The translations under genes were made by a program, and so were the position numbers. A stretch of DNA of 64,000 bases. Source: Patescibacteria group bacterium (lineage in GTDB: Bacteria; Patescibacteriota; UBA1384; GWA2-35-9; JBASTP01). This document shows positions 26,583 to 58,612 of the stretch, one piece after another (the stretch's first letter is position 1; each line of letters begins with the position of its first letter). The stretch is taken from NCBI GenBank assembly GCA_049274945.1, contig JBASTP010000002.1, positions 81,216-145,215 of the forward strand, in the 5' to 3' direction. Under the pieces are notes generated by a model. The model did no database searches. It saw only the letters and a list, made by a program, of their open reading frames with translations, and was not told the DNA's origin.

Positions 26583-27844
26583 AGCAGTCCTCTCCCCACT
26601 TCATTGATGTTCGTTGCCCCAACGGTAACCACGATATCGCCTGGTTTGATAATTCGCTTGAGACGGCTGACGATTGCGCCATAGTCTCCGTAGAATTCGG
26701 CTGATTTTCCAACTGCCCGGGCAAGGTCCTCGGAGGTTACCGAAACCGACTCGTCCCGACCTACCACTTGGTAGACTGGCGCAAGCAGCACCAGATCGGG
26801 TTGCCGTAATACTGCAACAAATTTATCAAAGAGGAGTTTGGTACGGCTCGCTTGATGGGGCTGGAATACCGCGATGAGCCGCACCTTAGGATACAACTCT
26901 CGCAGTGTTTTGAATACCACGGCAAGCTCGGCAGGGTGGTGGCCATAGTCGTCGTACACGGTCACCCCGCCACTTACCCCAAGCCGCTCGAGCCGGCGGC
27001 CTACCCCTTTAAAGTTATTGAGCGCGGTTTTGATAATCTGGGCTGGGATACCTAATTCATGGGCTAGGTGGGCTGCCAGCGTCGCGGCTAGGATGTTGTG
27101 TTCGCCGGGAACTTTGAGATGCACCCCGGGCCAAGGTTCTTTTGCGCTGACCGCTTTGACCTTACACTTGGCAGATTTAACTACTGCCCTAAGATTTTTA
27201 TCATCGCCGTTAATCACCAACACGCCATTACCGGGGATGAGTTTCACAAAATCGCGGAATACCCGAATGATTTGGGGCAACCCCTTGGGGAACGTATCGA
27301 GGTGCTCTGCATCAATATTGGTAATGATGGCAGCGCGCGGGACAAATTGTAAGAACTGTTTATCATATTCACAAGCTTCTGCCACCACATGACGACCATT
27401 ACCAATGCGATAGCTGGCATTAAACTCCTTGATGACCGCGCCGCTCGCAATGGTAGGGTCTACACCTGCCTCAACTAAAATCATCCCAAGCATCGCCGTA
27501 GTGGTAGACTTGCCGTGCGCCCCGGCAATTGCGACGCCAAGCTTGCCTGCTTCGGCCATGAGCCTACCAATCACCCAGGCGCGAGTTTTTATGGGAATGT
27601 TCAATTCCTGGGCCTTGGCTACTTCTTTGAATCCAGGTGATTGAGGGGTAATTGCTTGCGAGATCACTACTAAATCGAGTCCGCCGGCTGGCGGATTGGT
27701 GATGTGTTTGGGATCATGACCATCGGTCGCAAAATCACAACCACTAACGGCGAGCCCCCTGGCTTCTAATACCTTTGCCAACCCACCCATCGAAACCCCG
27801 TTAAGGCCGATCATGTGGACGCTTTTTATATCGTCGAGTTCCAT
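26579..27844 (-). CDS. murC: UDP-N-acetylmuramate--L-alanine ligase
   Basis: GAHGKSTTTAML P-loop and the Mur ligase three-domain layout. 4-nt overlap with murB. Confidence 0.9.
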   Translation of the reverse strand: MELDDIKSVHMIGLNGVSMGGLAKVLEARGLAVSGCDFATDGHDPKHITNPPAGGLDLVVISQAITPQSPGFKEVAKAQELNIPIKTRAWVIGRLMAEAGKLGVAIAGAHGKSTTTAMLGMILVEAGVDPTIASGAVIKEFNASYRIGNGRHVVAEACEYDKQFLQFVPRAAIITNIDAEHLDTFPKGLPQIIRVFRDFVKLIPGNGVLVINGDDKNLRAVVKSAKCKVKAVSAKEPWPGVHLKVPGEHNILAATLAAHLAHELGIPAQIIKTALNNFKGVGRRLERLGVSGGVTVYDDYGHHPAELAVVFKTLRELYPKVRLIAVFQPHQASRTKLLFDKFVAVLRQPDLVLLAPVYQVVGRDESVSVTSEDLARAVGKSAEFYGDYGAIVSRLKRIIKPGDIVVTVGATNINEVGRGLL

Positions 27845-27855: not shown

Positions 27856-28977
27856 CTAGCGTTTTTTTCGCAGAATTTCAAGGATAATCTGAGCGATGTG
27901 ACTTGCCGCATCGGGCTTGCCAAGGAGCGACATCTTGTTGGCCATTGCCCCGAGACGGAACTCGGAGCTCAGTAATTTTTTAAGGGTGTCAGCCAATTCC
28001 TCAACCGATACTTGGTGATCATCAATCATCAGCCCTCCTCCGGCGTGCGCGAAGATTTCGGCATTTTTGAGTTGGTGGCCAGAAGCGGCTGACCGAAGTG
28101 GCAGCAATATGGCTGGCTTACTCGCTGCGGCAAGCTCCGCGAGCGTTGAGGCGCCAGCACGAGACAGCACGAGATCAGATGCCACGAGCGCCTGGGGAAA
28201 CTCGCGTTTAAGAAAACTAACCACATGGTAGCGTTTGCGCTCATAAAGGGGAAGTTTTGCGCGAATCCGAGCAAGCCACTCGAGATCGTGTACCCCGGAA
28301 ATATGGATTATCTGGAACTCCTGAAGTAATTTCCCGGCAATCCGCGAAATAAGATGATTAATACGATGGGCACCCTGGGAGCCGCCCATCACAAGGAGCG
28401 TTTTATTGCGTGGATCAAAACCGATTTCCTTAAGATAGTTTTTGGCTGGCCGCAAAAATTCGCTCCGGACGGGAATACCGGTGTAGATAAGTTTTTTAGC
28501 GAACGGCACATTGCCCGGCTGCCGGCCGGACAGGTAGAACTTTTTTGGAAACCCAACCATTACAAACAGGGCGTGACGAGCAGCGATTCGATTAGCAAGG
28601 CCAAACACCGCATCCGACTCGTGCACAAGAATCGGTATCCCCAGCCCTTTGGCGGCAAGCACCACTGGCAGACTAACATAGCCACCCTTGGCGAGCACGA
28701 GGTCGGGCTTGAAACGGCGCAGCAGGTCCCGTGCCTTGAGATAACCGGCAACTACCCGGAATGGGTCAAATAGATTTTGAAGATCAACATAGCGCCGCAG
28801 TTTACCGACCGGAATCGCCTCAAACGGCACTACGCCGGCCGTTAGATCGCGCTCGATAGCCTTCGAACCAATATAGAGAAAGCGGCAGTCGGCCCGCTTA
28901 CGCAGCTCCTGGGCAACAACCAGGAGGGGCCAGACATGGCCTGCGGTGCCGCCGCCAGTTAAAACGATTTTATGCAT
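27856..28977 (-). CDS. murG: Undecaprenyldiphospho-muramoylpentapeptide beta-N-acetylglucosaminyltransferase
   Basis: MHKIVLTGGGTAGHVWP... GT28 N- and C-terminal domains. Confidence 0.85.
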   Translation of the reverse strand: MHKIVLTGGGTAGHVWPLLVVAQELRKRADCRFLYIGSKAIERDLTAGVVPFEAIPVGKLRRYVDLQNLFDPFRVVAGYLKARDLLRRFKPDLVLAKGGYVSLPVVLAAKGLGIPILVHESDAVFGLANRIAARHALFVMVGFPKKFYLSGRQPGNVPFAKKLIYTGIPVRSEFLRPAKNYLKEIGFDPRNKTLLVMGGSQGAHRINHLISRIAGKLLQEFQIIHISGVHDLEWLARIRAKLPLYERKRYHVVSFLKREFPQALVASDLVLSRAGASTLAELAAASKPAILLPLRSAASGHQLKNAEIFAHAGGGLMIDDHQVSVEELADTLKKLLSSEFRLGAMANKMSLLGKPDAASHIAQIILEILRKKR

Positions 28978-28985
28978 AAATTAAG

Positions 28986-29085
28986 GTAGTAAAACAACCA
29001 CTGATGTTAATCCACTGATAATCACTGATTGGGCATACCTGATCTGTGTTTATCTGTGGATCAAATATCTGTGGCTGTGATACTT
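28986..29085. repeat. Division/cell-wall cluster junction element B (inverted copy of element C)
   Basis: GGTAGTAAAACAACCACTGATG...TATCTGTGGATCAAATATCTGTGGCTGTGATAC. Its ends are reverse complements of the ends of element C. Confidence 0.7.
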
Positions 29086-29090
29086 CATTA

Positions 29091-30215
29091 TTATGTAACT
29101 GTTCGCTTCGAAATATTAAGTAATATCCCTACCCCAATAAGCAGTGTTACGAGCGCCGATCCGCCATAACTCACAAACGGCAACGGTATCCCGGTAAGCG
29201 GCACAATACCAAGGTTAGCGGCTATGTTAACAAAGCTCTGTCCGGCGACCCAGCTGGCAATACCAACCGCGAGGAGTTTACCAAAATCATCAGGAGCCTT
29301 CCGGGCTATTCGCAAGCCGCGGAGTGCGACAAATATCAGCGCTGCAAGAAGCGGAATTGTCCGTAGAAAGCCAAGTTCTTCTACAATCACCGCAAAAATA
29401 GCATCGGTATGAGCTTGCGGCAAGTAGAGATACTTCTGCCTGGAATTGCCAAATCCCAATCCAAGTAGTCCGCCTGAGCCAATCGCTAAGATGGTTTGGT
29501 TGAACTGATAACCGGAACCAAGCAGATCAGCCGAAGGATTGAGAAATGTCAAAAAACGCTGCCACCGGTAGCTTGAAAATCGGATCAGCACGAAAAACAG
29601 AGCGAGCGCACTAAGACCCCCACCTAACAAGTGGATGGTCCGGGCACCGGCGGCCCAAAACATTGAGGCGGCGATCAAACTAATCACAATCACGGTGCCG
29701 AGATCAGGCTGTTTTACGATGAGTCCAACAAGCAGCAGTAAAAGGAGTGAAAACGGGAACAACCCTGATTCTACATTCCTGATTGCCTCACCGCGACGCT
29801 CAAGCCAGGCCGCCAAGTAAATCACAAAGGTAAGTTTTACAAGCTCAGAGGGCTGAAGTAGCACCGGACCAAGGTTGATCCAGCGGCTCGCGCCGGAGAG
29901 TTTCAAGCCGATCCCGGGAATGAACACCAGGACAAGCAAAACAATTGAAATCCCCATAAGCGGACTCGCAATCTTGCGCCAAAATCGGTAGTCAATGTTT
30001 GCCGAGATGGCCAGCGCCAGCATGCCTACCACTACGGCAATCGCTTGGCGAGTGAGGTAGTACCAATTAGTACCGAAACGCTCAAACGAGATCACCACCG
30101 AGGAAGATGAGATCATTAAAATCCCGAACAGCGTGAGGGCTGTTACGACAAAGAGCAACCAATAATCAAAGCGTGGATAGAAAGCTTGCCGGTAACGACC
30201 GAGAATAGTAGCCAA
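29091..30215 (-). CDS. ftsW: Peptidoglycan glycosyltransferase FtsW (SEDS family)
   Basis: Ten-transmembrane SEDS profile. Positioned between murD and murG. Confidence 0.8.
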   Translation of the reverse strand: MATILGRYRQAFYPRFDYWLLFVVTALTLFGILMISSSSVVISFERFGTNWYYLTRQAIAVVVGMLALAISANIDYRFWRKIASPLMGISIVLLVLVFIPGIGLKLSGASRWINLGPVLLQPSELVKLTFVIYLAAWLERRGEAIRNVESGLFPFSLLLLLLVGLIVKQPDLGTVIVISLIAASMFWAAGARTIHLLGGGLSALALFFVLIRFSSYRWQRFLTFLNPSADLLGSGYQFNQTILAIGSGGLLGLGFGNSRQKYLYLPQAHTDAIFAVIVEELGFLRTIPLLAALIFVALRGLRIARKAPDDFGKLLAVGIASWVAGQSFVNIAANLGIVPLTGIPLPFVSYGGSALVTLLIGVGILLNISKRTVT

Positions 30216-30237
30216 TGAAGTTCCTCCTTAATAAGGA

Positions 30238-30322
30238 AGTATCACGACCACAGATATCTGATCCACTGATTTTCACTGATCTGTGATTATCTGTGGATTG
30301 ACATCAGTGGTTGTTTTACTAC
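30238..30322. repeat. Division/cell-wall cluster junction element C (overlaps the murD stop codon)
   Basis: GTATCACGACCACAGATATCTGATCCACTGATTTTCACTGATCTGTGATTATCTGTGGATTGACATCAGTGGTTGTTTTACTACC. Confidence 0.7.
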
Positions 30323-31623
30323 CTTCTTATCGATTCTAGCACAAGCTCTTTGAATCGCCGACCTCGCTCTTCCAAATTCCCGAATTGATCGTAGGAAGCG
30401 GCAGCTGGTGATAGGAGCACAATGTTGCCAGGGTTTGCCGATGACGTTGCAATTTCCATCGCCTGATCAAGCCCACCAGCGTGAATTGACCCTGGAATCA
30501 ATTTGTGGAGCACCCTACCGGTTTGGCCAATCAAAATTACCTGGCTCGTTCGCTCCTTGATTGGCCTCAGCAGCGGTTTTAGGTTGATTTTCTTGTCATA
30601 CCCGCCGGCGATCAAGATCACCGGCTTGCTAAACGAGCTGAGGGCGGCAATGGTGGCTTCGGGAGTGGTGGCGGCAGAGTCGTTGTAGAACTTTACGCCG
30701 TCGCGCTCGCCGACATATTCGAGAACGTGCTCAACACCCGGAAAAGTAGCTAGGGCCTGGTAGCTAGTAGCTAGCGACACACCGAAGAGTCGGCCGACTT
30801 CGGCAGCGAGGGTGGCGTTCATCAAATTATGTTCTCCCGGAACCCTTAGGGTTAACTGTTTGAGCGGCCGCTGTACCTTAACTAGGCTTGCCCGCGCGCC
30901 TTTGGCAATCTTTTGGACGTTTTTGTCGCGCCAGTTGAGCACCGCGAAGTCATCGCGTTTTTGAAATCTCACAATATTACACTTCGCATCCAGGTAGGCG
31001 CGCATCGTGTTGTGCCAATCCAGGTGGTCGGGCGTAATGTTCACGACTACCGAAATATTGGGTGATTTTTTGATAATCGGCAGCCAGGCAAGTTGGAACG
31101 ATGAAAGCTCGAGCACCACAAGGTCACTCGGTTTAATCTTATCTAGTTCCGAAAGTAACGATTTGCCAATATTGCCACCGAGCCAAATGTTTGAGTCTTT
31201 GAGTCTTTGAGTCTTTGAGTGTTTGAGCAGTGCAAAAATCATTCGCGCAACCGTTTCTTTGCCATTAGTCCCAGTTACCCCAATAATTTTTGCCGGGCAC
31301 CGTTCCATAAAAAGGTTGATTTCAGTTGTCATGGGGATACGCCATTTTGAGGCCATCTTGAGATAGGGTGAGTCGGGCTTAACGGCCGGGTTTACCACAA
31401 TAAGGTTGCTTTTTTTCAGCTCGCGGCTATCGTGTTTTCCGAGAATGAAATTGACTTTAAGACCTTTGAGTTTTTTGAGTGATTCTGTAAGTTCATCTGC
31501 GGTTTTGAGGTCAGTTACGGTAACCTGCGCGCCCCGAGCCACAAGCCAGCGGGTCACGCCAATTCCTCCCCCGAACCGCCCCAGCCCCATCACCAACACT
31601 TTTTTGCCTTTTAAATCAGTCAT
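30319..31623 (-). CDS. murD: UDP-N-acetylmuramoylalanine--D-glutamate ligase
   Basis: N-terminal Rossmann (KKVLVMGLGRFGGG), GVTGTNGKETV P-loop. Contains an in-frame 9-nt tandem repeat (CTCAAAGAC x4) at 31188-31230 and a GCTAGTAGCTAG mini-repeat at about 30760. Confidence 0.85.
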   Translation of the reverse strand: MTDLKGKKVLVMGLGRFGGGIGVTRWLVARGAQVTVTDLKTADELTESLKKLKGLKVNFILGKHDSRELKKSNLIVVNPAVKPDSPYLKMASKWRIPMTTEINLFMERCPAKIIGVTGTNGKETVARMIFALLKHSKTQRLKDSNIWLGGNIGKSLLSELDKIKPSDLVVLELSSFQLAWLPIIKKSPNISVVVNITPDHLDWHNTMRAYLDAKCNIVRFQKRDDFAVLNWRDKNVQKIAKGARASLVKVQRPLKQLTLRVPGEHNLMNATLAAEVGRLFGVSLATSYQALATFPGVEHVLEYVGERDGVKFYNDSAATTPEATIAALSSFSKPVILIAGGYDKKINLKPLLRPIKERTSQVILIGQTGRVLHKLIPGSIHAGGLDQAMEIATSSANPGNIVLLSPAAASYDQFGNLEERGRRFKELVLESIRR

Positions 31624-31634: not shown

Positions 31635-32342
31635 TTACGATAATCCGACTACCGATACCATCACCCCGCCGATTTTTTCATGGGTGTGGTGGTAGGACCA
31701 GTAGCTGACGGGAAGCTCTGCGGTACACTTGGCTTGTGAGTCAATGTGCTCTGGCCTGATGCCCGCTTTAACGAGCTGATCAACTACTGCTTTTTTGAGA
31801 TCGATTCCGATCCTCCCCTCTTTCGGAGCCGAATCAGTGGGTAAAAGTTTGACGCGTTCATCTTCAGGTGCAACATCATAGTGCTTGCTGCAAATGAATG
31901 GCCCAAATTTGACGGTAATATTTGCCGGGTCACACTTAAAGTGCTTGACCATCTCGCCCACCATCTTGCCGGACAGTCCGTTTGTGGCACCGCGCCAGCC
32001 CACGTGAGCTACCCCAATCGCAACTGGACTCTCTCTAGTAACCCCTGGGGTTACTAGAGAAGACTCGTCAACAAAAAATAAAGGGATACAATCCGCATGA
32101 TAAACCGCGAGCCACAGATTGGGCGTTTTACTGATTAGGCCGTCGGTGTTTTTGCGCAATTGCGGCCGCTTAACCACGCCAACGCGATCGCCATGCGCCT
32201 GCTGCATGTACACTACCTTATTCGGGTTGACACCACGGCTAGCAAAAAAACGTTGATGGTTTGCATCAACTTGCTCTTTGGCGCCGAACTTATATGACAT
32301 ATTGCCGTCGGCGATCGTTGATGTAAAAATTTGTACTTTCAT
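31635..32342 (-). CDS. pgeF: Peptidoglycan editing factor PgeF/YfiH-like (DUF152)
   Basis: QQAHGDRV...YHADCIPLFFVDE...GVAHVGWRG motifs. Start taken at MKVQIF (32342); the track start at 32369 would lie inside the 34-nt repeat. Confidence 0.65.
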   Translation of the reverse strand: MKVQIFTSTIADGNMSYKFGAKEQVDANHQRFFASRGVNPNKVVYMQQAHGDRVGVVKRPQLRKNTDGLISKTPNLWLAVYHADCIPLFFVDESSLVTPGVTRESPVAIGVAHVGWRGATNGLSGKMVGEMVKHFKCDPANITVKFGPFICSKHYDVAPEDERVKLLPTDSAPKEGRIGIDLKKAVVDQLVKAGIRPEHIDSQAKCTAELPVSYWSYHHTHEKIGGVMVSVVGLS

Positions 32343-32355
32343 CTTATAAAGCGGC

Positions 32356-32389
32356 CTGCGAAGCCCCAATTGCCTAAGAGCGGATCACG
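32356..32389. repeat. 34-nt exact repeat, copy 2
   Basis: Identical to 3250-3283. Lies between the mraY stop and the pgeF start. Confidence 0.7.
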
Positions 32390-32412
32390 GATGGAGCGAA
32401 CTAAGCCGCTAC

Positions 32413-33465
32413 CTAGCCTCGCCCAAACAGCGCGATAAATAACCCAATCACCGCAAACACGGTGCCGGTTACCCAAAAGCGCATCGTCACCTTAGTTTCC
32501 GGCCAGCCGATCGCCTCTAGGTGGTGGTGGAACGGCGCCACAATAAATACCTTTTTATGAAATAGTTTCTTACTAGCAATCTGGATAATTGATGACAGCG
32601 TGTCGATCACAAATACAAAACCAATAATCGGTAGCACCAATGCAGTATTAGTGAGCATGGCAATCACCCCGAGGGTTGCCCCCAGGGCAAGCGAACCGGT
32701 ATCCCCCATAAAAAACCGCGCCGGGTAAATATTGAACCACGTGTAGGCTAGGGTTGCCCCAACCACCGTGCCACAGAAGGCTGCGAGCGCTACCTTGCCT
32801 TGCGAGAGCGCGATCACGGTGAACGCACCGAACACCACCGCCAGCAACCCACCCGCTAAGCCATCGAGGCCATCCGTCAAGTTCACGGCATTGGCTGAAG
32901 ACACAATCACGAGAATAAAGAGGGGCACATACCAAAAACCAATCTCGACATTCGGCGGCAAGCCGAAGAACCGGCCACCGGGAATATGAATCGCCGACCA
33001 ACCGAGCTTGGAATAAAACCACCAGGCACCGAGGGCGGCCAGCGCAATCAGCCAGAGCATTTTGACCCAAAAACTTAGCCCCGCCACACCATTACCATTG
33101 GCGCCCTTTACATTGATCAAATCATCCACCAGCCCGAGGATGCCGAACGCGGCAATCGTGAACGCCGGTAGGTACGTTTCGGCCCGCGACCAGTTGAAAA
33201 CTAGCGTGAGCCCAGCCACCACCAACCAAATCAGCACGCCTGCCATGGTTGGCACCCTTCGCTTGAGCTTATCGGCATGCAGTTTTTGGTAAAACACCGC
33301 CTTCTCGCCGGTAATTGCCCTGACCTTTGGTTTTTTCCAGAGCTTAAAATGGTAGAGCACCCAAGAAAGCACCGGGGTGAGGAGCATCGAAATCACAAAC
33401 CCAGCAACCACCAGGCCAAAAATAAAAATCAGGTCCTGAATTTGGAAAATAATTGTTTCGCTCAT
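32413..33465 (-). CDS. mraY: Phospho-N-acetylmuramoyl-pentapeptide transferase
   Basis: Polytopic membrane protein with MraY DD..D and HHH motifs (VAPFHHHLE). Confidence 0.9.
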   Translation of the reverse strand: MSETIIFQIQDLIFIFGLVVAGFVISMLLTPVLSWVLYHFKLWKKPKVRAITGEKAVFYQKLHADKLKRRVPTMAGVLIWLVVAGLTLVFNWSRAETYLPAFTIAAFGILGLVDDLINVKGANGNGVAGLSFWVKMLWLIALAALGAWWFYSKLGWSAIHIPGGRFFGLPPNVEIGFWYVPLFILVIVSSANAVNLTDGLDGLAGGLLAVVFGAFTVIALSQGKVALAAFCGTVVGATLAYTWFNIYPARFFMGDTGSLALGATLGVIAMLTNTALVLPIIGFVFVIDTLSSIIQIASKKLFHKKVFIVAPFHHHLEAIGWPETKVTMRFWVTGTVFAVIGLFIALFGRG

Positions 33466-33489
33466 GTAATACTCGATTTAATGTAGGGC

Positions 33490-33530
33490 GGCAACCACAG
33501 ATTTATGCCACAGATAACCACAGATTATTT
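33490..33530. repeat. Division/cell-wall cluster junction element D (three direct CCACAGAT repeats, overlaps the murF stop codon)
   Basis: GCAACCACAGATTTATGCCACAGATAACCACAGATTATTTC; spacings of 14 and 10 bp. Confidence 0.65.
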
Positions 33531-34751
33531 CACCAAAGCGTCGACAATCTCCTTGAACCCCATTCCATGCGACGCTTTTACGAGTATTGTATCCCCTTTA
33601 CGAACCTGTTGCAACAGAAAATCGGTTGCGCCATGTTTATCATCGAAATGTTTCCCACCCATCAGTTTAGCCAACGGGCCTACGGTGATGACAAGATCAG
33701 CGGATTGCCGGGCGGTTGCCCCTACCGCTTGGTGCGCCTGCCGGGCGGCGGAGCCAAGTTCAAACATGTCGCCAAGTACGGCAATGGTCCTGCCTTTTAT
33801 CTTTGCGAGCTCACCGAGCGCCAGGTCCATTGATACTGGATTGGCGTTGTAACTTGAATCAATGATCGTGCTGCCATGTTTGCCCCTAAGAGTATTAAAA
33901 CGACCCTGGGGCGGCTCGAACGACTTGATCACACGGTTGATGGTGGCAGCCCGCACCCCAAAGTAGCGGCCAACTGCCCGCGCCGCCCCGTCGTTAAACT
34001 TAAAACCTTGAGCTTTGATCCACACTGTTTTGGAAGATGTCCGGTCGCCCATTTTCCGCACCAAGGGATCATTGCCATTGAGTACCGCCAGGCCGTCTTG
34101 CGGCAGCGCAGCCACAATTTCGCCCTTCTCTTTAGCAATCTGGGCTCGTTTTCTGAAGAATTCGAGATGAGCGTCGCCCACATTAGTAACCACGGCAACA
34201 GTTGGTTTGACAAATGACAGGAGAAATTTGAAATCCCCGGGCATATCGGCGGCAAACTCGAGAACCCAGAGCTTGGGGTAGCTAGTAGCTAGCAACCAGT
34301 AGCTAGTAGCTAAGAAGGCCTTCAGGAGCCACCAGGGCCACTGCCAGAGACTAGGGCCGAGGTTTGGCCAATCGGGTTTAAACCCCAGGAGAGCAATGGG
34401 GATACCGGTTTTTGTAGAGAGTGAACCTGGACTGACCGCCACCCGATGGTGGTATTTCTGTTTAAGTACCTGGTAGATCAAAAATTTCAGGGTTGTTTTA
34501 CCAGCCGAACCTGTTACGACGACGAATTGTGGCCGGTGACGAGCGATCACCAGTGCAACGAGCAGCTTGAGATAGTTCTTGACAAAAAAGAGACCAAGAG
34601 TTCGCATAGATTGATTATACCTGTTAAAACGAGCTAAAGCAATCATCCAAGAATATTTTGTGATATACTGGATCAAAGCGATTGACAGTTTAATAATCCT
34701 GTGGTAAGATACCATCGCCTGGAATGGCCTTGAAAACCGAGCTTGAATCAC
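33525..34751 (-). CDS. murF: UDP-MurNAc-pentapeptide synthetase MurF-like Mur ligase
   Basis: VVVTGSAGKTTL P-loop. Position upstream of mraY. Short (408 aa). Contains two in-frame LLATSY repeats encoded by GTAGCTAGTAGCTA. Confidence 0.7.
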   Translation of the reverse strand: MIQARFSRPFQAMVSYHRIIKLSIALIQYITKYSWMIALARFNRYNQSMRTLGLFFVKNYLKLLVALVIARHRPQFVVVTGSAGKTTLKFLIYQVLKQKYHHRVAVSPGSLSTKTGIPIALLGFKPDWPNLGPSLWQWPWWLLKAFLATSYWLLATSYPKLWVLEFAADMPGDFKFLLSFVKPTVAVVTNVGDAHLEFFRKRAQIAKEKGEIVAALPQDGLAVLNGNDPLVRKMGDRTSSKTVWIKAQGFKFNDGAARAVGRYFGVRAATINRVIKSFEPPQGRFNTLRGKHGSTIIDSSYNANPVSMDLALGELAKIKGRTIAVLGDMFELGSAARQAHQAVGATARQSADLVITVGPLAKLMGGKHFDDKHGATDFLLQQVRKGDTILVKASHGMGFKEIVDALVK

Positions 34752-34765
34752 AACCTGAACGGCAA

Positions 34766-35467
34766 ATGCTGTCTGAAGAACGGGTTCTGAAGGCAGTGGA
34801 AACAGGGCAAAATGGGCCCCGCTTCAACTTCAAGAAATACCTTGAGGGTTTTTACAAAGGTTTTGCCCCGGACGCTCACGGCAGGTGGCCGACGGTTGGC
34901 AACGACAGTCATACAACAATCGCTGAACTCAACCAGCGAGCCTTTGATGACTGGCAATATGTTGAGAAAAACCAACCCCGGTTTGGGAACACCATCAAGG
35001 GTTGGGCGGCAGAGTGGCTGATTCTGAAATCGCTCGCTGAGCGGTACGATGGCGGTTTGAAATTCGAAAAAGGCACCGACCCGCTCACCGAAGCAAAGGG
35101 CGAAGATCTGAGGATGGAACTGCCCTTTAAAAATGAAAAACATTGGTTCCGCTTCGATATCACGGTCTCGGATGAAACGCAACTCCACGCCAAGCAAGAC
35201 CGCGCCGCAGCCGAAGCGAAATATCGCACCGAGCCACTTGAGACAATCGTGCCGTTGCCGGTTGGCAAATTGACGAAGGACCGTGAGCGGTTCATCCAAC
35301 TCCAACACTACCCTAGCCTCCGAACCGCGTTTGCCGAAACCTTGGTTGAGCAGTACATTCCCGCGCTGCTCGTTGAAAACCTCGGACCGCAGCTTCAAGC
35401 TCGGGGACTCAATGCCAAAGAGATTAGCAACCGAGCGCGCCTCATTCCCCATCCTGCGAGGAGGTGA
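34766..35467 (+). CDS. Hypothetical protein (about 233 aa)
   Basis: Protein-like composition, whereas the fully overlapping antisense ORF (34748-35470, minus) is F/R/L/C-rich. Start moved to ATG 34766 to clear murF. Confidence 0.5.
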   Translation: MLSEERVLKAVETGQNGPRFNFKKYLEGFYKGFAPDAHGRWPTVGNDSHTTIAELNQRAFDDWQYVEKNQPRFGNTIKGWAAEWLILKSLAERYDGGLKFEKGTDPLTEAKGEDLRMELPFKNEKHWFRFDITVSDETQLHAKQDRAAAEAKYRTEPLETIVPLPVGKLTKDRERFIQLQHYPSLRTAFAETLVEQYIPALLVENLGPQLQARGLNAKEISNRARLIPHPARR

Positions 35468-35653
35468 CAATGCGTGTCCACACGATTGCTTATCGGCCTA
35501 GCCACTTGGTTTTTTCGAAGAATCTATCTCCCGCTGTGGTGCCGGTACCGTTGGCACACTAAGCATTGCTCCAGTTGCAAAGGCAACCGTCACGCCTGCA
35601 ACTGTGATGCTTACTTCAGACTGATCGCCCGTTTCCACACTTGGATCCGAAAC

Positions 35654-35684
35654 TAAACGCTCCCGCCGCGGGAGCGTTTTTTTT
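35654..35684 (+). terminator. Rho-independent terminator (AACGCTCCCGCCGCGGGAGCGTT plus T8)
   Basis: Perfect 10-bp stem followed by TTTTTTTT. Confidence 0.65.
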
Positions 35685-35693
35685 AGCTGGAGC

Positions 35694-36386
35694 CTATCCT
35701 TCGGTAGTAACGTAGTTTGCCGAGATCCAACCCGTTTTGCCGGGTTCGTATTCAATCTGGTACCAACCGTCCTTTGTCTCAATCAGCTTGGCACTTTGGC
35801 CCGGGTTTAATTTACCCACTTCCTGGGCGCCGGTGTTCGGCTGGGCGCGTACGCGTAGCGAGCCAATATCCTGATCTTTGAGTTTTACTGACTTTGCACC
35901 ACCACTGACCGGAGTTGCCTTAACCGATTGTACGGGATTTTCCTTCTGACTCGTTGGCTTTGCGGGCGAGGCCGATTTTGCCTTGTTAATCGCCTCCATA
36001 ATCGGAGATTTTACCCCCACCTCTTCTATAAGCTGAATCTTTTCACGATTAATCAGCGTTTCGCCTTGTGGGCCATGGAGTTCTTGACCACGCTTTACTA
36101 AGTCGAGCTTAGAACCTTCGGGCTGCGTCTCCCCCGAAGGCACCGCCCGCAGATAGTAAACATTGCGCAAAGTAACGTACTGGCTCGTTTTATTCGCTAT
36201 GGTGCCGAAGTACGCTTGGTTATTATCCAAAAATACTCCAAAGTAGCGCTCGCCGGAACTACGCGAGATTAGCTTATCGACTACCGCCGGTAGTTTTACT
36301 TGTTTTTTGGAAACTAAATAACCCAGGAACGCTCCCGATACCACGAGTGCGCTCACCACCGAAGCGATAATCGACTTAGTATGCAT
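35694..36386 (-). CDS. Membrane-anchored protein with a C-terminal bacterial SH3 (SH3b) domain
   Basis: N-terminal transmembrane segment; C-terminal GSLRVRAQPNTGAQEVGKLNPGQSAKLIETKDGWYQIEYEPGKTGWISANYV is SH3_3-like. Confidence 0.6.
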   Translation of the reverse strand: MHTKSIIASVVSALVVSGAFLGYLVSKKQVKLPAVVDKLISRSSGERYFGVFLDNNQAYFGTIANKTSQYVTLRNVYYLRAVPSGETQPEGSKLDLVKRGQELHGPQGETLINREKIQLIEEVGVKSPIMEAINKAKSASPAKPTSQKENPVQSVKATPVSGGAKSVKLKDQDIGSLRVRAQPNTGAQEVGKLNPGQSAKLIETKDGWYQIEYEPGKTGWISANYVTTEG

Positions 36387-38287
36387 TAGAACTTAGTTAC
36401 GGTAATACGGTATGTTTCCGCAGCTGGATCGGCCAGGGCTGAAACACTCACGTTACAGCGCCTTACTCGAACCGTGTCTGCGGCGCTCACGTAGCCCCAA
36501 ATTGCGGAGTTAGCGGCCGGAGATGCCGGAGTGCCGACATGGACAGAGTCGCCAGTCGCTGCTCCGGTCAAGGTAATGGCACCCGATTCCTCACAGGTGC
36601 TTGCAGCCGTGGCACCAAAATCAATGCTTGAAGTACCTGAAACAACATCAAGTAATGTGGTGGTGCCAAGGTTCAATGAAACGAGTACTGCAGCGCCGCC
36701 TGTACCGATAGACCAGTTGTCGTCAATAATAGAGACGGTGGTGGCAGAAGAGGAACCAATCGCAATGGTGTTGGCCACCGCGCCAGTGCCGATACTGATC
36801 GAGTCGGCGGTGGTGGCGCCAGTGCCAATATTAATCGTGTCGGCGTTCGTACCGGTGCCGATCGCAATGGTGCGGGTCACATTGGTAGAACCAAGGTTCA
36901 AGGTAGTGGCAGCATTGGCGACATTGAAGGTGGCAGCCGTGGTGGAAAGATCGCCACCGTTAACGGCGATGTCGCCGCCGGTTGTAATATCACCCGAGGA
37001 ACCGGTAACATCAAAATTGGTTAGATCAAGATTTGCGGTCGTGCCAATAATTGCGTTATCCGCAATAGAGATCGCATTGGTGTAATCCGAATCGGTAATA
37101 TCAATTGCCGTGGTCTGGGCCGCCGAGGCCGAGAGCGTAAGCAAGCCCGTACCGGTAATCTGCCAATCATCGCCGCCGGTGATTGCTACGGTAGTTGAAG
37201 CATTATCATTACCGATCGCAATGGCATCGGCAGTGGAACGATGAGTAGCAATATTAATGGTATCAGCGCCCGATGCCGTAACACCGCCGATATCAATCGT
37301 TTTTGTAGCGGTTGAATCGGCAAAATTAAGGAGAGTGGCCGCACCGCCGATGTTTAACGTTTCAACACCGGTGTTGAGGAGATTAACTGTCGTAGCCGAT
37401 GAAGTAATGTCATCGCCAAACTGGGCATCGCCGGCAAAGGAAATATCCCCTTCAGCGTCCACCTTAAACTTGCTGGTGCCGTCCACAGCCACTCCGAGCA
37501 ACGTCCCGTTACTTGGAGCGCTCGCCGGGTTGATGTAGACCGGCCCGTCCGCCACCCCAGATCCGCCTGGTTTGGAAGTAAACTTGATTGCTCCCTCGGC
37601 AGTATCGCCTTCGTCGGATCTAAGTAGCACCCCAGGAAGCAAGCCACCTATCTTTGCGGCATTGACATTGGTGATGGCCGATCCATCAAGCGAACCGAAA
37701 TAGCTCGAGGTGAAACTGGCAATCTTGCCGTCCTTACCGATAATTTCAACATCGCCGACTTTAATCGCCTGGCTCGTGGTGAGAGCGCCACTTGTATTGA
37801 CTAGGAGCCCTCCTGTGCCCACGCGGAAACCTTCGAGCAACGTGAGTTCTTGATTAAAGGTAGATTTGCCGGTAACTTTCCCACCGCTCAACGGCAAAAA
37901 TTGGGTAACCGAAGGAACGGGAGTCGGCTTCGGAGCCGGTGCGGGAGTTGGCGTGGGCTTGGGGGTCGCCGATGGCGCCGGTGTCTCGATTGGGTTTGGT
38001 CGCAGGGTTGGTGTAGGAGTTTGTACCGGTTTTGGGGTAGTAATCGGTTTCGACGGCTTCTGGCTATCGGCCTGGGCAAAAAAACCCGAGAAAAAATTTT
38101 TCAATGACTGAAAAATTCCCGTCTGATTATTAGAACTGTCCTGAATGCCGCGAACAACTCTGTTAGTTTGCTTATCATGGGATGCAAACGTATTACCGGA
38201 AGAACCAACAATAACTAAGCCTGCAATCGCCAGGGTTATAAAAAAGCGAAAACTAAATTTAGCCAGGTTAACTCCCCCTCCGGTCAT
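36386..38287 (-). CDS. Large surface-exposed repeat protein (Pro/Thr-rich linker plus Thr/Gly/Ala-rich beta-helix-like repeats)
   Basis: 633 aa. N-terminal transmembrane/signal segment, a PTPTP linker, and many TINIGTGATTADSISIGTG-type repeats. Upstream extended -10 (TGTTGTATAAT) and a GAGGGGAG ribosome-binding site. Confidence 0.6.
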   Translation of the reverse strand: MTGGGVNLAKFSFRFFITLAIAGLVIVGSSGNTFASHDKQTNRVVRGIQDSSNNQTGIFQSLKNFFSGFFAQADSQKPSKPITTPKPVQTPTPTLRPNPIETPAPSATPKPTPTPAPAPKPTPVPSVTQFLPLSGGKVTGKSTFNQELTLLEGFRVGTGGLLVNTSGALTTSQAIKVGDVEIIGKDGKIASFTSSYFGSLDGSAITNVNAAKIGGLLPGVLLRSDEGDTAEGAIKFTSKPGGSGVADGPVYINPASAPSNGTLLGVAVDGTSKFKVDAEGDISFAGDAQFGDDITSSATTVNLLNTGVETLNIGGAATLLNFADSTATKTIDIGGVTASGADTINIATHRSTADAIAIGNDNASTTVAITGGDDWQITGTGLLTLSASAAQTTAIDITDSDYTNAISIADNAIIGTTANLDLTNFDVTGSSGDITTGGDIAVNGGDLSTTAATFNVANAATTLNLGSTNVTRTIAIGTGTNADTINIGTGATTADSISIGTGAVANTIAIGSSSATTVSIIDDNWSIGTGGAAVLVSLNLGTTTLLDVVSGTSSIDFGATAASTCEESGAITLTGAATGDSVHVGTPASPAANSAIWGYVSAADTVRVRRCNVSVSALADPAAETYRITVTKF

Positions 38288-38365: not shown

Positions 38366-40090
38366 CTAATTGTTTGGAATTGGCTGGTTTGGCTGTACCT
38401 GATAGTAGGTTAAAATCTGCTTGGCCAGTTTGCCGAAGGTCGGCGCGGCCGAGGACTCGGCAAATTCCACATTCTTCGGCCGATCAAATTTTACGAGCAT
38501 AGCAAACTTGGGATCATCGGCCGGGAAAAAGCCGCCGAAGCTGCCAATGTGGGCATTTTCAAGGTAGCCGGCGCCGGAAGGATTGGGAATCTGGGCCGTG
38601 CCGGTTTTACCTGCCACCTTAAAACCTGGCACCTTGGCTTTTTTGCCGTGGCCGTTTTCAACCACGGAAATGAGCATCTGGGTAACCAGGTGGGCAGTTT
38701 CTGGCTTGATTGCCTCGCCCAGCTGCTTTGGTTCGAACTTAACTTCAGTGCCGTCGGGCCGGATCATTTTTTCCACAAGGTAAGGGCGCATCAGCTTGCC
38801 GCCGTTTGCCAAGGTTGCGTAGGCATTAACGAGCTGGAGCGGCGTCATGGAGATGCCTTGGCCAAATGAAAGTGTGGCGCGGTGAATGTCACGCCAATTT
38901 TTAAGCTCGGGAAGTGTGCCAGTTGTTTCGCCGCTTACATCAACGCTGGTTTTGACGCCAATGCCAAAGCGCTTAAAATTCTCATGCATCGCTTCGTTGC
39001 CGATTAAATTGGCAAGATAAACCAAACACACGTTATCGGAATTCTCAAGGCATTGAGTTACGTTTTCCTGGCCAAAACTCTTATCCTGCGCGGTGTGGAT
39101 TTCGTAGCCCTGCACCACCACCATATTAGAAAAATTACCCGAGGTTTCCGCCGTAATCTTGCCGACATTAAGCCCCCCGGCTACCACAATCGGTTTGACG
39201 ATTGATCCCGGCTCGTAGACCGCTGACACAATGGGATTTAAAAACACTTTTTGATCCTCGGGCTTGACCTCGTTAAACGTATTGGGATCGTATTCAGGAG
39301 CACTCGCCAACGCTAAAATCGCGCCGGTTTTCACATCCATTACAATCACCTGGCCGGCATCTGCCGCATACTTTTCGATCCCCTCTTGCAACGCTTGTTC
39401 AACCATAAACTGAACGTTGCTGTCTACCGTGAGGTGAAAATCAGAGCCGTCCCTGGCTTCTCTGGATCGAGCAACCGAAATAAACCGGCCCTTGTTGTCC
39501 TTCTCGGCGAGCACCGCGCCCGGCGCCCCCTTGAGCTCCGCATTGTAAAAACCTTCGATGCCGTAGCGGCCCTCTGCCTCAAAATCAACAAACCCAAGGA
39601 TATGGGCCGCAAAGGATTGTTCGGGATAAAATCGAACGTGTTCGGGAATAGTCAGAACTCCCGGGAGGGCAAGTTTTTCAATTTCCTTAGCTTTCGGTTC
39701 GTCGACGCGCCGCTTAATGGGAGGCACGTAGAGCTTTTGATTATTGATCTTCTCGAAAATCGCTTGTTCCTGATCCTTCATATCGAGTTTTTCGGCAAGC
39801 AATTTGGCCACTTGGTGGCGATCTTCGGTATTTTTAGGAACTACAAGGATTTGATATTTTGCGGCGGTTAGGGCCACGGGTACCGGACCATCCTTGCTGC
39901 GCAGGTAAATTGCTCCACGCTTGGGCGGCAATTCCTGACGGGTAAAGTGCTGGGCTTTGGCGAGTTCTTTAGCTTGAGCGTGAAAAATAATCGATTTTTC
40001 AAATAATCTCGCTACCACCGTGCCAAACAACACAAAAAAAACCACCCCAAGGATGGTGATACGATTTTGCAGGAGGGGTAGCCGTGTCAT
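38366..40090 (-). CDS. ftsI: Peptidoglycan D,D-transpeptidase FtsI/PBP2-type class B PBP
   Basis: N-terminal transmembrane anchor, dimerisation domain, and transpeptidase motifs SIVKP, SDN, KTGT. Confidence 0.85.
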   Translation of the reverse strand: MTRLPLLQNRITILGVVFFVLFGTVVARLFEKSIIFHAQAKELAKAQHFTRQELPPKRGAIYLRSKDGPVPVALTAAKYQILVVPKNTEDRHQVAKLLAEKLDMKDQEQAIFEKINNQKLYVPPIKRRVDEPKAKEIEKLALPGVLTIPEHVRFYPEQSFAAHILGFVDFEAEGRYGIEGFYNAELKGAPGAVLAEKDNKGRFISVARSREARDGSDFHLTVDSNVQFMVEQALQEGIEKYAADAGQVIVMDVKTGAILALASAPEYDPNTFNEVKPEDQKVFLNPIVSAVYEPGSIVKPIVVAGGLNVGKITAETSGNFSNMVVVQGYEIHTAQDKSFGQENVTQCLENSDNVCLVYLANLIGNEAMHENFKRFGIGVKTSVDVSGETTGTLPELKNWRDIHRATLSFGQGISMTPLQLVNAYATLANGGKLMRPYLVEKMIRPDGTEVKFEPKQLGEAIKPETAHLVTQMLISVVENGHGKKAKVPGFKVAGKTGTAQIPNPSGAGYLENAHIGSFGGFFPADDPKFAMLVKFDRPKNVEFAESSAAPTFGKLAKQILTYYQVQPNQPIPNN

Positions 40091-40298
40091 ATTTTAGAAA
40101 AATTATCTGGCTCGGGTACCGCCTCGGGCGTGCGCTCTACTCGCCTCCGGCTCGCCCTCCGCCTCGCTGCTTGGTAGCTCCTGCCCTTCGACAAGCTCGG
40201 GGTCCCGTCGTCCAGGCAGCTCAGCGGGGCAGGAGCGCTTCGCTTCCTGTGGCGCTAGCAACCCGCCTTCGGCTGGTACCTCTCGCTAAACAGCTTAA

Positions 40299-40541
40299 TT
40301 ATTTCGGAGCCTCGAGTCCTGAGTTGGTAAGTTTCTGCGCCTCGGCTAGGGACTTGAGGCGCAACGTCTCAATCTCGAGCCGCTCGTTTTCTTCCTGCAA
40401 ACCCTGTTTGGTTAGCTCGAGCTCACGCACTTTGTAATTTTTGGTCGCCGATTGGGACGACTGGGCAAGATAAAACAGCGCCAGCGCCGCCAAAATGAGC
40501 AAGGTAATGAACCGCAACGAGAGTGGTCCGACTTGGATCAC
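40299..40541 (-). CDS. ftsL: FtsL-like small membrane coiled-coil protein (GTG start; true start uncertain)
   Basis: One transmembrane segment plus a coiled-coil (ELELTKQGLQEENERLEIETLRLKS). Position between ftsI and mraZ. Confidence 0.5.
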   Translation of the reverse strand: MIQVGPLSLRFITLLILAALALFYLAQSSQSATKNYKVRELELTKQGLQEENERLEIETLRLKSLAEAQKLTNSGLEAPK

Positions 40542-41045
40542 TTGGTTAATGGTTCGCTTTTGGATCCCCAGCGCGGCGGTGTTCCGATTAGTGATGGTGA
40601 GTGAGATGGTAACTCCTTATTGAAACAAAAAAGCTTAAAGTAATTGGCGGCCGGCAGCGGTGGAAAGCTTCCCCGTGGCGTCTCTCCCGATTTTGAAGTC
40701 GTGATTGAGCCATTTTTGAGGGAACCCCTCCTTTTGCTTTGTGTTTTTTAAAGAAAGATTAGTCCTTTTTATTTTGATCCCAGCTCACCCTTAATGGGTG
40801 GGTCAGGACACATGTGCCGCTGCCGACCTATCCATAAAACAAAAATAAGTTGAAAACAGCTTGTTCATCAGCTCACGTGTGCGCTTTATGCTTCGCACCC
40901 TGCGCCACTCCGCTTGGCAGCTCAACGCACTAAGCGTGCATTTCGCTCCAGGCTGCGCGGCGGGGTTGGAGCAGCGCCTTCGGCGCTTTCCAATGCGCTA
41001 GCGACCCACGTTCGCTTGATGAACTTCGCGTTTTCTCGATAACCG

Positions 41046-41477
41046 TCAGATGTCCAACGACTGAAGGTGCGTCAGTAATTCCTCGCGCGATGATGTGGCA
41101 GTTTTCTTGAGTTTTTCCCAGCGGCTCCCCTGCCAAACCTCAATCTTGTTATACATACCGATCACCACGGCCTCAGTGCTAATACCGGCATATTCCCTAA
41201 GGAATTGCGGTATGAGCGCGCGGCCCTGGCGGTCGAATTCTACTTCTATTGCCCCTGATAGCATAAACCTCGCAAAGGCGCGGCCCTTGGGGTTACTCAT
41301 GGGAATAGCTGCCAATTTCTGGGCTAGTTTTTCCCACTCTGCTCGCGGATACACTACTAAATTAACATCGTCACCTCGGGTAATTACGGCACCCTTGCCT
41401 AGTTCTCTGCGAAACCGGTATGGCATGGCCAAGCGACCTTTTCCGTCAATTGTGTGCTCGAATTCTCCGATAAACAT
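41046..41477 (-). CDS. mraZ: Transcriptional regulator MraZ
   Basis: Duplicated SpoVT/AbrB-like halves with DxxxR motifs (IDGKGRLAMP / FDRQGRALIP). Confidence 0.85.
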   Translation of the reverse strand: MFIGEFEHTIDGKGRLAMPYRFRRELGKGAVITRGDDVNLVVYPRAEWEKLAQKLAAIPMSNPKGRAFARFMLSGAIEVEFDRQGRALIPQFLREYAGISTEAVVIGMYNKIEVWQGSRWEKLKKTATSSREELLTHLQSLDI

Positions 41478-41519
41478 GGCTAATATGTGCAGGTGCTGGG
41501 AGTAGTACCCGCTTTCCCC

Positions 41520-41566
41520 TAGTTATCCACTTATTCTACTACTTTTCCCCACTTTTATCCACAATA
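41520..41566 (-). promoter_or_regulatory. MraZ-box-like direct repeats (GTGGATAAAA / GTGGGGAAAA / GTAGTAGAAT / GTGGATAACT, about 10-12 bp periodicity) upstream of mraZ
   Basis: Minus strand reads TTGTGGATAAAAGTGGGGAAAAGTAGTAGAATAAGTGGATAACTAGG, 40-85 nt upstream of the mraZ ATG. Resembles the E. coli GTGGG-repeat MraZ operator. Also contains a perfect DnaA-box 9-mer, TTATCCACA. Confidence 0.5.
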
Positions 41567-41702
41567 GTAACATGGCTTGGATCCTTGTCAAGCCCCCCTC
41601 CCACTCTGCCCCACTAAGGCGCCCTACTCACTCTGCGTACGCCCAATAAACAAAAAAAGCGTTCCTCTATCGGAACGCTAGTAACTGCCTATTAGTTTTC
41701 GA

Positions 41703-49109: not shown

Positions 49110-49356
49110 TCCAGTACCTCCAGATTGTTCCGGTGCCAACCCTTCGACAAGCTCAGGCTAAACGAAAAACCGCCTTGTCGGCGGCCCTTCGAAAGTGAAA
49201 TGTTTTTGTGATTTCAGCAATCGCAAGGTACCGCCCTCTCATCAAGGAGAATAATGACTCCAAGAGCAAGTTTGGTTCTTACTGAATGCTTCATCACACT
49301 ATATAATTTACCGACAGTAAGACGAGTTGTCAAGTATTTTAGCGGGCGGCGAAGGG

Positions 49357-49503
49357 TGCCAGTCGAGGGTGGGTTGCTAACGCCACAGGAAGGGAGCATC
49401 CGATCACAAATTACGAATTGTGATACGGAGCGACCGCTCCTGCCCCGCGGAGCGGGGTCCGAAGGATAGAGTGCACACCCGAGGCGGTACCCGAGCCAGA
49501 CCG
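49357..49503 (-). repeat. R150 repeat family, copy C (3'-UTR element of mutM; carries an extra 24-nt hairpin insert)
   Basis: About 92% identical to copy A, apart from the insert CCCCGCGGAGCGGGGTCCGAAGGA. Confidence 0.7.
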
Positions 49504-56027: not shown

Positions 56028-56147
<120 letters not shown>

Positions 56148-56310
56148 AAAGGTGGGTTGCTCTCTCTCGGAATGAATCCCAGAGTTGGAACAGGTAAGCA
56201 TTTGACCGATTAGTACGCCTTGGCTCAAACCCTTGCGGGTCTTCCACCTAGCGCCTATCAAGGTCGTGGTCTTCGACCGGTCTATAACGAAGTCTAATCT
56301 TGGGGAGGGC

Positions 56311-56341
<31 letters not shown>

Positions 56342-56419
56342 GCCCGAGCATAGCTACCCAGCACTGCCCTTGGTAGGACAACTGGTACACCAGAGGCTCG
56401 GCTCCTCCGGTCCTCTCGT

Positions 56420-57165: not shown

Positions 57166-57216
57166 ACTAGGAGGGGAACCCCTCAGACTTCAACGCCCAC
57201 AGCAGATGAGGACCGA

Positions 57217-57564: not shown

Positions 57565-57664
57565 ACTGTCTTGCGACGTTCTGAACCCAGCTCACGTGGC
57601 GTTTTAACTGGCGAACAGCCAGACCCTTGGGCGCTGCTCCACGCCCAGGATACGCCGAGCCGAC

Positions 57665-58555: not shown

Positions 58556-58612
58556 CGACATTTCTATCGAGGTGCCAAACCGGGCCGTCGATATGGACTC
58601 TTGGGCCCGATC

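Follow-up and report, generated by a model that had tools for sequence, protein, structure and literature searches.

A conserved MraZ operator, palindromic junction repeats and a spacer without rsmH in the division/cell-wall cluster of a Patescibacteria genome

The DNA analyzed here (the window) is a stretch of 64,000 nucleotides (nt) from a genome of the Patescibacteria (candidate phyla radiation), and corresponds to positions 81,216-145,215 of the forward strand of contig JBASTP010000002.1. It contains a division/cell-wall gene cluster that runs on the minus strand from the mraZ end (41477) to the recJ end (19836). An earlier interpretation based on the letters of the DNA alone (the sequence-only reading) had drawn attention to GTGG repeats upstream of mraZ, to related elements at four gene junctions of the cluster and to the lack of rsmH after mraZ, and had proposed that binding sites of MraZ are distributed at internal promoters of the cluster. 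Along the minus strand, the cluster comprises mraZ (41046-41477), encoding a protein of 143 amino acids (aa) that matches Pfam MraZ in two stretches (E = 1.6e-36), an ftsL-like gene (40299-40541 as called by the open reading frame (ORF) caller, with a GTG start at 40541), ftsI (38366-40090), three unknown or SH3-domain genes between ftsI and murF (34748-38287), murF (33525-34751), mraY (32413-33465), a yfiH-like gene (31635-32369), murD (30319-31623), ftsW (29091-30215), murG (27856-28977), murC (26579-27844), murB (25614-26582), enolase (24175-25404), ddl (23062-24105), ftsQ (21616-22428) and recJ (19836-21506).

For comparison, we used a set of 80 division-cluster loci of relatives (1.03 Mb) that were fetched via MraY, and in 39 of these mraZ was located. 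Comparison loci are denoted by L-numbers. The close strains (FtsW 90-93% identical) include L197, L198, L199 and L200, and the FtsW of the window is 92% identical to a protein from a Candidatus Berkelbacteria assembly. Loci L003-L116 were obtained by scanning a genome collection, with one genome per species, for arrays of the CACNGAT unit described below.

The GTGG repeats upstream of mraZ are located at positions 41521-41564 of the minus strand and have the sequence TTGTGGATAAAAGTGGGGAAAAGTAGTAGAATAAGTGGATAACT. The boxes are, in order, GTGGATAA, GTGGGGAA, a degenerate GTAGTAGA (GTAGT) and again GTGGATAA, and their starts are 10, 10 and 12 nt apart, in agreement with the phasing of about 10-12 bp described earlier. 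Within this array, a GTGG-N6-GTGG pair is present at 41549-41562. The boxes directly follow a strong promoter of the sigma-70 type (41564-41591, minus strand) consisting of TTGACA, a 16-nt spacer and a TG-extended TACTAT (TTGACA-16-TGnTACTAT; 10 of 12 consensus matches), such that the first box starts at the final base of the -10 hexamer. The last box is followed 44 nt later by the start codon of mraZ. The promoter is isolated by an intrinsic terminator of the upstream gene (41658-41679, minus strand), in which TTTTTTGTTT comes after a stem of 8 bp. On the minus strand, a GTGGGG/GTGGGA pair with a distance of 10 bp lies just upstream of the -35 hexamer (41599-41614); it has weak scores of 4.6 and 1.4 bits on the matrix of relatives' boxes, and possibly represents auxiliary MraZ boxes.

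These repeats are conserved in sequence, position and phase. Of the 40 loci, close strains included, with sufficient sequence in front of mraZ, 38 have at least one GTGG pair at exactly 10-bp spacing no more than 200 nt upstream of the gene, compared with 114 of 13,870 control windows (0.8%). Moreover, the 20-mer block GTGGATAAAAGTGGGGAAAA is identical in L117, L134, L122, L124 and L173. The MraZ box of the lineage, as derived from the operators of the relatives, reads (A/T)(A/T)GTGG(G/a)(T/g)A; the base three positions past GTGG is an A in 90% of these boxes, and the flanks are rich in A/T. When all 858 GTG[GT] sites of the window were scored with the matrix of the relatives, the operator boxes ranked 2nd, 4th and 15th (10.7-15.9 bits), and the operator was the only match in the window to the double-box pattern, even if two mismatches were allowed. 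The MraZ protein itself is intact and has both DXXXR motifs (DGKGR and DRQGR).

In the published description of MraZ binding, the mra promoter carries three GTGG[A/T]G repeats separated by 4 nt, and in B. subtilis this triple occurs nowhere else (bioRxiv 10.1101/2022.02.09.479790). The repeats of the window resemble those of E. coli, B. subtilis and Mollicutes in being GTGG direct repeats with a 10-bp period at the promoter of an mraZ-led operon, and in that there is one such site per genome region. They differ in the box, which is GTGG(G/A)(T/G)A with A/T-rich flanks, in the overlap of one box with a perfect DnaA-box 9-mer, in the second, weak pair upstream of the -35 hexamer, and in the operon itself, which has no rsmH. 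We conclude that the GTGG boxes at 41521-41564 are to be regarded as an ordinary, conserved MraZ autoregulatory operator, as the sequence-only reading had supposed. From the sequence, position and conservation observed for this site we infer that MraZ binds to it and represses; when bound, it would block RNA polymerase and thereby repress the mra operon, as it does in E. coli, B. subtilis and Mollicutes.

The perfect DnaA-box 9-mer TTATCCACA that had been noticed in this region is present at 41555-41563. The window shows no enrichment of DnaA-like 9-mers, with 16 occurrences at no more than one mismatch in 64 kb against 12.4 expected, and the only two in the region 41500-41620 both coincide with MraZ boxes. 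The 9-mer is a by-product of the GTGGATAA box. An origin or DnaA-box cluster at this promoter was rejected, as TTATCCACA-like 9-mers show no enrichment.

In 11 of the 12 closest mraZ loci, a gene encoding a Methyltransf_5 (RsmH) protein directly follows mraZ. This gene is absent after mraZ in the window, in the close strains L001 and L198, and in L117, and tblastn searches with the RsmH sequences of six relatives gave no trace of it within the 64-kb window or in L117. The earlier observation that rsmH is lacking after mraZ is thus correct, and a pseudogene remnant in the spacer was rejected because no tblastn match was obtained. Sequence comparison indicates that rsmH was lost from the mra operon in the clade formed by the window genome, its close strains and L117. 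The 500-nt spacer that takes its place had been described as non-coding. It does lack rsmH, but it is not featureless, since it contains a hairpin insertion, a structured RNA and, probably, the 5' end of ftsL.

The first of these, a GC-rich hairpin insertion of ~200 nt (40845-41040, minus strand), lies directly after mraZ and has a predicted folding energy of -89.6 kcal/mol (z = -3.95). The window shares it with L001 and L002, L198 lacks it, and no second copy was found in the window. Because the hairpin is followed by a U-rich stretch, it might attenuate read-through from mraZ.

The second feature of the spacer is a conserved structured leader RNA of 180 nt (40649-40828, minus strand), which has homologues in relatives and shows strong covariation. 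It consists of a long-range helix P1 of 12 bp, formed by GGUCGGCAGCGG with CCGCUGCCGGCC, a hairpin P2, A-rich linkers and a AGGAGGGG motif that pairs locally (GAGGG/CCCUC). Between AAAGCAAAAGGAGGGG and GGCCGCC (~110 nt), the window and L198 differ by one extra A in L198 and by no substitution, in contrast to the adjacent ftsL gene, which diverges. Homologues were found in L198 (1043-1249), L117 (1518-1688), L173 (756-927), L134 (4454-4588), L122 (1234-1407), L124 (5681-5835), L138 (6339-6594) and ~15 further loci. The RNA is located between mraZ and rsmH in most relatives, and before ftsL in the window. More distant homologues in the candidate phyla radiation, whose MraZ proteins are 30-36% identical, have closing helices of 13-21 bp, and share a block ACACCUCCCAAAACUCCACCUCACAUAAGUCUCUC that resembles the 16S 3' end; the 3' helix strand of this group also carries AGGUGAUC. 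Helices of 12 bp or longer are present in about 27 of 41 windows downstream of mraZ, against 8% of random windows.

As alignment of the full leader RNA with MAFFT/RNAalifold misaligned the 5' strand of P1, base pairs were counted on 12-nt segments anchored on the GGCAG/CUGCY core instead. Among the 17 distinct sequences obtained in this way, P1 is 97.1% paired and 10 of its 12 pairs show double changes, figures to be read with the caveat that the segments had first been found by a helix finder that favors complementarity. The covariation score of P1 was 0.723, against 0.397 for shuffled sequences; none of 500 shuffles reached the observed value, and slid controls collapsed. Searches against Rfam gave only chance-level matches to snoRNA and antisense-RNA families at the leader RNA (E = 4-10), although inclusion of the mraW model in the Rfam set used is unconfirmed, and the L138 homologue had no Rfam match at E values up to 10. 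The mraW RNA motif of Actinobacteria, which is in Rfam, is likewise a structured RNA 5' of rsmH/mraW within the division/cell-wall cluster; the RNA of the window differs from it by its long closing helix with the GGCAG/CUGCY core and by its A-rich linkers. It is possibly a cis-regulatory leader of rsmH/ftsL.

The sequence-only reading had taken AGGAGGGG for a ribosome-binding site followed by a 41-codon ORF. This did not hold, as AGGAGGGG belongs to the structured RNA and the ORF lacks conservation: its frame is shifted in the near-identical strains L001 and L002 by an indel of 1 nt after codon 23, L198 has a different tail, and in L117, L124, L173 and L134 AGGAGGGG is not followed by any ORF. 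An ORF of 107 aa in the spacer of L117 is probably spurious too, because it has no Pfam match and overlaps the homologue of the RNA. The third feature of the spacer concerns ftsL. Upstream of the GTG at 40541, the window and L198 differ by synonymous changes with respect to the frame of ftsL, apart from one conservative Ile/Val change. Together with the conservation of GGAG-N5-ATC in both, this suggests that ftsL probably starts ~66 nt further upstream, at a non-canonical ATC at 40607 that lies 5 nt after GGAG, such that the extended ftsL-like gene would span 40299-40607 (minus strand). The ftsL homologue of L117 gave a weak FtsL_2 match.

The elements at the four gene junctions, which we named A to D, are described here on the minus strand. 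Elements A (ftsQ/recJ junction, 21512-21621), B (ftsW/murG, 28983-29093) and C (murD/ftsW, 30229-30328) are imperfect full palindromes of ~100-110 bp, and D (murF/mraY, 33479-33527) is a half element, that is, a single arm with three ATCTGTGG units. Their positions had been recognized before; their sizes had not, given that A-C are full palindromes and D is a half element. Each arm of A contains three units of the CCACWGAT type. In A-C, the units of one arm are CCACWGAT, CCACAGAT and CACAGAT, and the other arm carries their inverse. The outer ends (A(G/T)G(T/A)AG...) are inverted, with a TA dinucleotide on each side. CCACAGAT occurs 12 times in the window against 1.5 expected, and the three-unit pattern occurs four times in the 64 kb, exactly at elements A-D, against 0 expected. 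Two further earlier observations proved right: C is an inverted copy of B (94% over 47 nt), and the stop codons of murD (30319-30321, provided by C) and murF (33525-33527, overlapped by D) lie inside the elements. When folded as RNA, either strand of A-C reaches -40 to -44 kcal/mol (z of -5.3 to -8.3 versus shuffles), and D does not fold. Each pair of facing units has a central A.A or U.U mismatch, because CACAGAT faces ATCAGTG and CACTGAT faces ATCTGTG. On the coding strand, we found no sigma-70-like promoter within elements A-D, and no terminator (GC-rich stem plus T-tract) was called there; no Rfam family matched them.

Comparison with the close strains revealed that the contents of these junctions vary. 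The murD/ftsW junction, which carries C in the window, contains the element in L198/L199, a variant with ATCCGTG units in L200, and is empty in L197, where it is 32 nt long. At the ftsW/murG junction, B of the window is replaced by a palindrome of CTAATTA units in L197, by a different palindromic family in L198/L199, which recurs after murC, and by a CACGGAT/ATCCGTG variant in L200. The murF/mraY junction has half element D in the window, a GC-rich copy of a second repeat family in L197 and the full element in L198/L199, and is not covered in L200. In total, there are four copies in the window, in both orientations, two in L198, and variants in L200 and L121. All copies are flanked by TA on both sides; at the empty site of L197 a TA precedes AGGAGG, but the left flank has diverged. 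Gain, loss and replacement among close strains argue for mobile or unstable repeats and not for conserved operators. Other unit-built palindromes are present at the same division-cluster junctions of L197 (1190-1350 and 4520-4630) and L198 (10070-10175 and 12590-12685), with units of the ATGTCAAAT type, of the CTAATTA type and of a third family in L198. As several unit types occur in these sister strains, palindromes built as unit arrays seem to be a general class within this lineage.

The second, GC-rich family comprises repeats of up to ~180 nt that are 83-96% alike. Its copies in the window are located at the recJ end (19698-19826), the murB/enolase junction (25452-25521), the ftsL/ftsI junction (40106-40286) and outside the cluster (49347-49500), and the one between ftsL and ftsI gave matches of 94-95% to 19700-19826 and 49349-49500. 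In L197, the family is found at other junctions (1-120 and 8000-8190). Three of the four copies lying at cluster junctions or at the recJ end suggests that the junctions of this long operon simply tolerate or attract insertions.

Elements A-D are thus best read as non-autonomous palindromic repeats of ~100 bp that, on sequence grounds, would form a new family of the kind of MITEs (miniature inverted-repeat transposable elements), Correia elements or repetitive extragenic palindromic (REP) sequences. Correia elements target TA, and the TA flanks of A-D match this. Like A-D, these MITEs of Neisseria are ~100-150 bp long, have inverted ends, are intergenic and often lie between co-transcribed genes, vary in presence between strains and fold into mRNA hairpins (PMC2649163). 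A-D differ from them in having arms of three 8-nt units each, and neither promoter-like ends nor an IHF site was found in A-D. With the REP sequences and bacterial interspersed mosaic elements (BIMEs) of enterobacteria, which are associated with REP-associated tyrosine transposases (RAYTs), they share the location of extragenic palindromes within operons, a possible mRNA-stabilizing role and a GTAG near the ends (TAAGGTAG); REPs are GC-rich single hairpins of 20-40 nt, however, whereas A-D are ~100 nt, AT-rich and built of units, and no RAYT gene was seen within the 64 kb and the fetched loci. Rickettsia palindromic elements are palindromic repeats able to sit in frame within protein-coding genes. 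An array in L053 similarly lies inside an integrase ORF whose frame is intact; there is no sequence relation to the Rickettsia elements, and the copies of the window are intergenic and merely clip stop codons. A large MITE survey does not mention the motif (PMC11602168).

Several points weigh against this interpretation. No clean pair of empty and filled sites proves a TA target duplication, as the left flank of the L197 site has diverged, and neither a transposase nor another autonomous partner was detected among the window genes scanned or beside the arrays in 114 loci. All four copies of the window fall in the division/cell-wall span, which holds 13 of the 49 junctions (rough post-hoc P = 0.003). 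Element D contains a GTGG-N6-GTGG pair. Finally, a 7-nt unit common to many phyla (see below) and the recurring central mismatch hint at a sequence-specific factor and not at a mere hairpin.

Because the elements lie between co-directional genes and have no promoters or terminators of their own, we infer that the polycistronic transcript of the division/cell-wall genes includes them and that they would fold in it into long imperfect hairpins of about -40 kcal/mol. By analogy with the Correia elements of Neisseria, which are RNase III substrates as mRNA hairpins (PMC2649163), RNase III may bind or cut the hairpins, or they may stabilize upstream mRNA segments. One alternative shares the origin proposed above and differs from it on function alone. 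In this view, the elements would be domesticated RNA hairpins that set the relative amounts of mRNA segments, through RNase III cleavage, exonuclease protection or uncoupling of translation, with their location in the cluster being selected. The strong coding-strand hairpins of A-C (-40.4 to -41.3 kcal/mol, z of -6.6 to -8.3), the exact placement of the elements from a stop codon to the next start, their clustering in the operon and the precedent of the Neisseria elements, which act in this way (PMC2649163), are all in line with such a function, as is the finding that one-armed arrays directly 3' of genes across phyla have CACAGAT on the sense strand in 32 cases versus 14 among the matches listed. 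Yet D does not fold, the opposite strand folds equally well, and no particular junction needs the element, given that L197 has an empty site and that L197 and L198 carry other families in its place. We regard domestication as possible but rather unlikely.

A second alternative starts from the distribution of the unit. A scan with one genome per species found the array pattern at more than 114 loci, versus ~3 by chance according to our own rough estimate, a count that lacks a baseline among tandem 7-mer units, so that no special status can be claimed for CACNGAT. The matches listed come from Acidobacteriota, Bacteroidota, Chloroflexota, Cyanobacteriota, Planctomycetota, Verrucomicrobiota, the candidate phyla radiation and others, and include GC-rich genomes. 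Some assemblies have multiple copies, with at least eight loci in one Bifidobacteriaceae assembly and at least seven in a Terriglobia assembly. The usual form is that of two inverted arms, CACAGAT... and then ...ATCTGTG, as in L038 (6241-6400), L091 (5065-5200), L017 (5983-6100) and L046 (~3726), and arrays often start no more than a few bases from a stop codon. Among the matches listed, C(A/G)CNGAT units occur every 9-11 nt, with a spacing peak at 9 followed by 10 and 11, 144 of the 198 arrays are one-armed, and the polarity is fixed, with CACNGAT preceding ATCNGYG in 43 cases versus 4 in reverse. In other bacteria of the candidate phyla radiation, the neighbors of the arrays are a gene with Pfam GDP_Man_Dehyd and Epimerase matches (a sugar-nucleotide dehydratase/epimerase) as well as queH and PAP2 genes. 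Within this radiation, the central A.A/U.U mismatch recurs in the copies of the window, L198, L089, L094 and L121. In the Saccharibacteria contig L053, arrays at 1390-1500 and 2060-2165 lie in frame in a gene for a Xer-like tyrosine recombinase (integrase); they are two pairs of 57-nt copies and split the catalytic domain of the recombinase. A phage origin was rejected, as there were just four matches in a viral collection. The cross-phylum arrays had no Rfam match, and literature searches by unit or array sequence found no description of them.

The same unit at so many loci and in GC-rich genomes too, the prevalence of one-armed arrays, their fixed polarity and the mismatch kept in the candidate phyla radiation would fit recognition arrays for a sequence-specific protein or ribonucleoprotein common to many phyla, such as a transposase/recombinase family or a nucleic-acid-binding protein, for which the palindrome would be secondary. 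On the other hand, the spacing peak of 9 nt does not equal one helical turn and resembles plain tandem duplication, no protein family recurs beside the arrays at the 114 loci, some matches are ordinary coding repeats (L012), and the count has the limit given above. That all C(A/G)CNGAT arrays form a single cross-phylum class of elements kept by a shared sequence-specific factor, with A-D as its candidate-phyla-radiation version, seems to us unlikely, and that they act as recognition arrays seems slightly more doubtful still. The short tandemly repeated repetitive (STRR) heptamers of heterocystous cyanobacteria are tandem short units, dispersed in intergenic regions and often downstream of genes, whose function is unknown. 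They are comparable to the arrays as short tandem units that are intergenic and often 3' of genes, but are contiguous 7-mers, whereas here 7-8-nt units recur every 9-15 nt, usually in two inverted arms.

The third alternative is that of the sequence-only reading, in which the junction elements are additional operators through which MraZ directly controls internal promoters of the division/cell-wall cluster. Their units contain GTGG or GTGT, two units of each arm are 10 nt apart, D has a GTGG-N6-GTGG pair, all four copies of the window are inside the cluster, and L121 has one array directly after mraZ; in B. subtilis, moreover, a double GTGG repeat is present at the mraY/murD junction (bioRxiv 10.1101/2022.02.09.479790). 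With the operator, however, the elements have the GTGG core alone in common. On the matrix of the relatives, their units rank 52nd-652nd of the 858 GTG[GT] sites and reach no more than 6.7 bits, because the conserved A after GTGG is missing in all units except the first of D. The ATC of each unit, which is equally conserved, has no counterpart in the operator, and the third unit is 13-15 nt away and hence out of phase. A 10-bp-phased GTGG pair is found in D only; in A-C, a distance of 13-15 nt separates the two units of an arm that contain GTGG, and the double-box pattern does not match the elements even at two mismatches. In addition, the elements have no promoter on the coding strand, the close strains are polymorphic for them and carry unrelated palindromes in their place, a single such array (that of L121) was found among the 80 loci of relatives (1.03 Mb), and similar arrays occur in unrelated contexts, including the inside of a coding sequence. 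The low scores, the missing promoters and the poor conservation at the junctions thus speak against MraZ sites distributed at internal promoters; the sequences indicate that elements A-D are not MraZ sites, and we hold the contrary to be very improbable.

Hence, the sequence observations made earlier were confirmed and their interpretation is partly supported, for the operator and the loss of rsmH. We consider it probable that three separate things are present at this locus: an MraZ operator, repeats A-D of the MITE/Correia/REP kind, and the loss of rsmH with a spacer containing a hairpin and a leader RNA.

Other parts of the window deserve mention. The content of 19836-25404 is unusual, with enolase between murB and ddl, and with recJ and radA, not ftsA/ftsZ, after ftsQ. 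The genes at 34748-38287 form a variable island inside the division cluster, encoding a repetitive protein of 633 aa, an SH3-domain protein and an unknown protein of 240 aa; at this position, the sister strain L198 has a single gene (3673-4413) on the opposite strand. A 40-nt repeat (98% identical) is present at 3243-3282, adjoining tRNA-Thr, and at 32352-32391, covering the mraY/yfiH junction and the start of yfiH. In the rRNA region (56136-61924), the 23S rRNA gene carries a group I intron (59804-60006), and a second group I intron match (57297-57557) lies past the 23S 3' end and before the 5S rRNA gene. Both have repeats of 52 nt (96% identical) and 41 nt (88%) in common, and the ORFs that flank them might be candidate homing endonucleases.

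If the junction elements were operators, MraZ would regulate the whole cluster through many operators, which would change the view of how division and cell-wall genes are regulated; the evidence is against this. What the operator does is to extend the known system to the candidate phyla radiation (Patescibacteria), where MraZ boxes with a 10-bp spacing of GTGG are conserved. The covarying leader RNA after mraZ and the cross-phylum CACNGAT arrays may be new. Furthermore, the intergenic junctions of this essential and densely packed operon, part of a tiny genome, are hot spots for several hairpin-forming repeat families that turn over between strains, a turnover that is useful for strain typing and that is also a warning to motif hunters.

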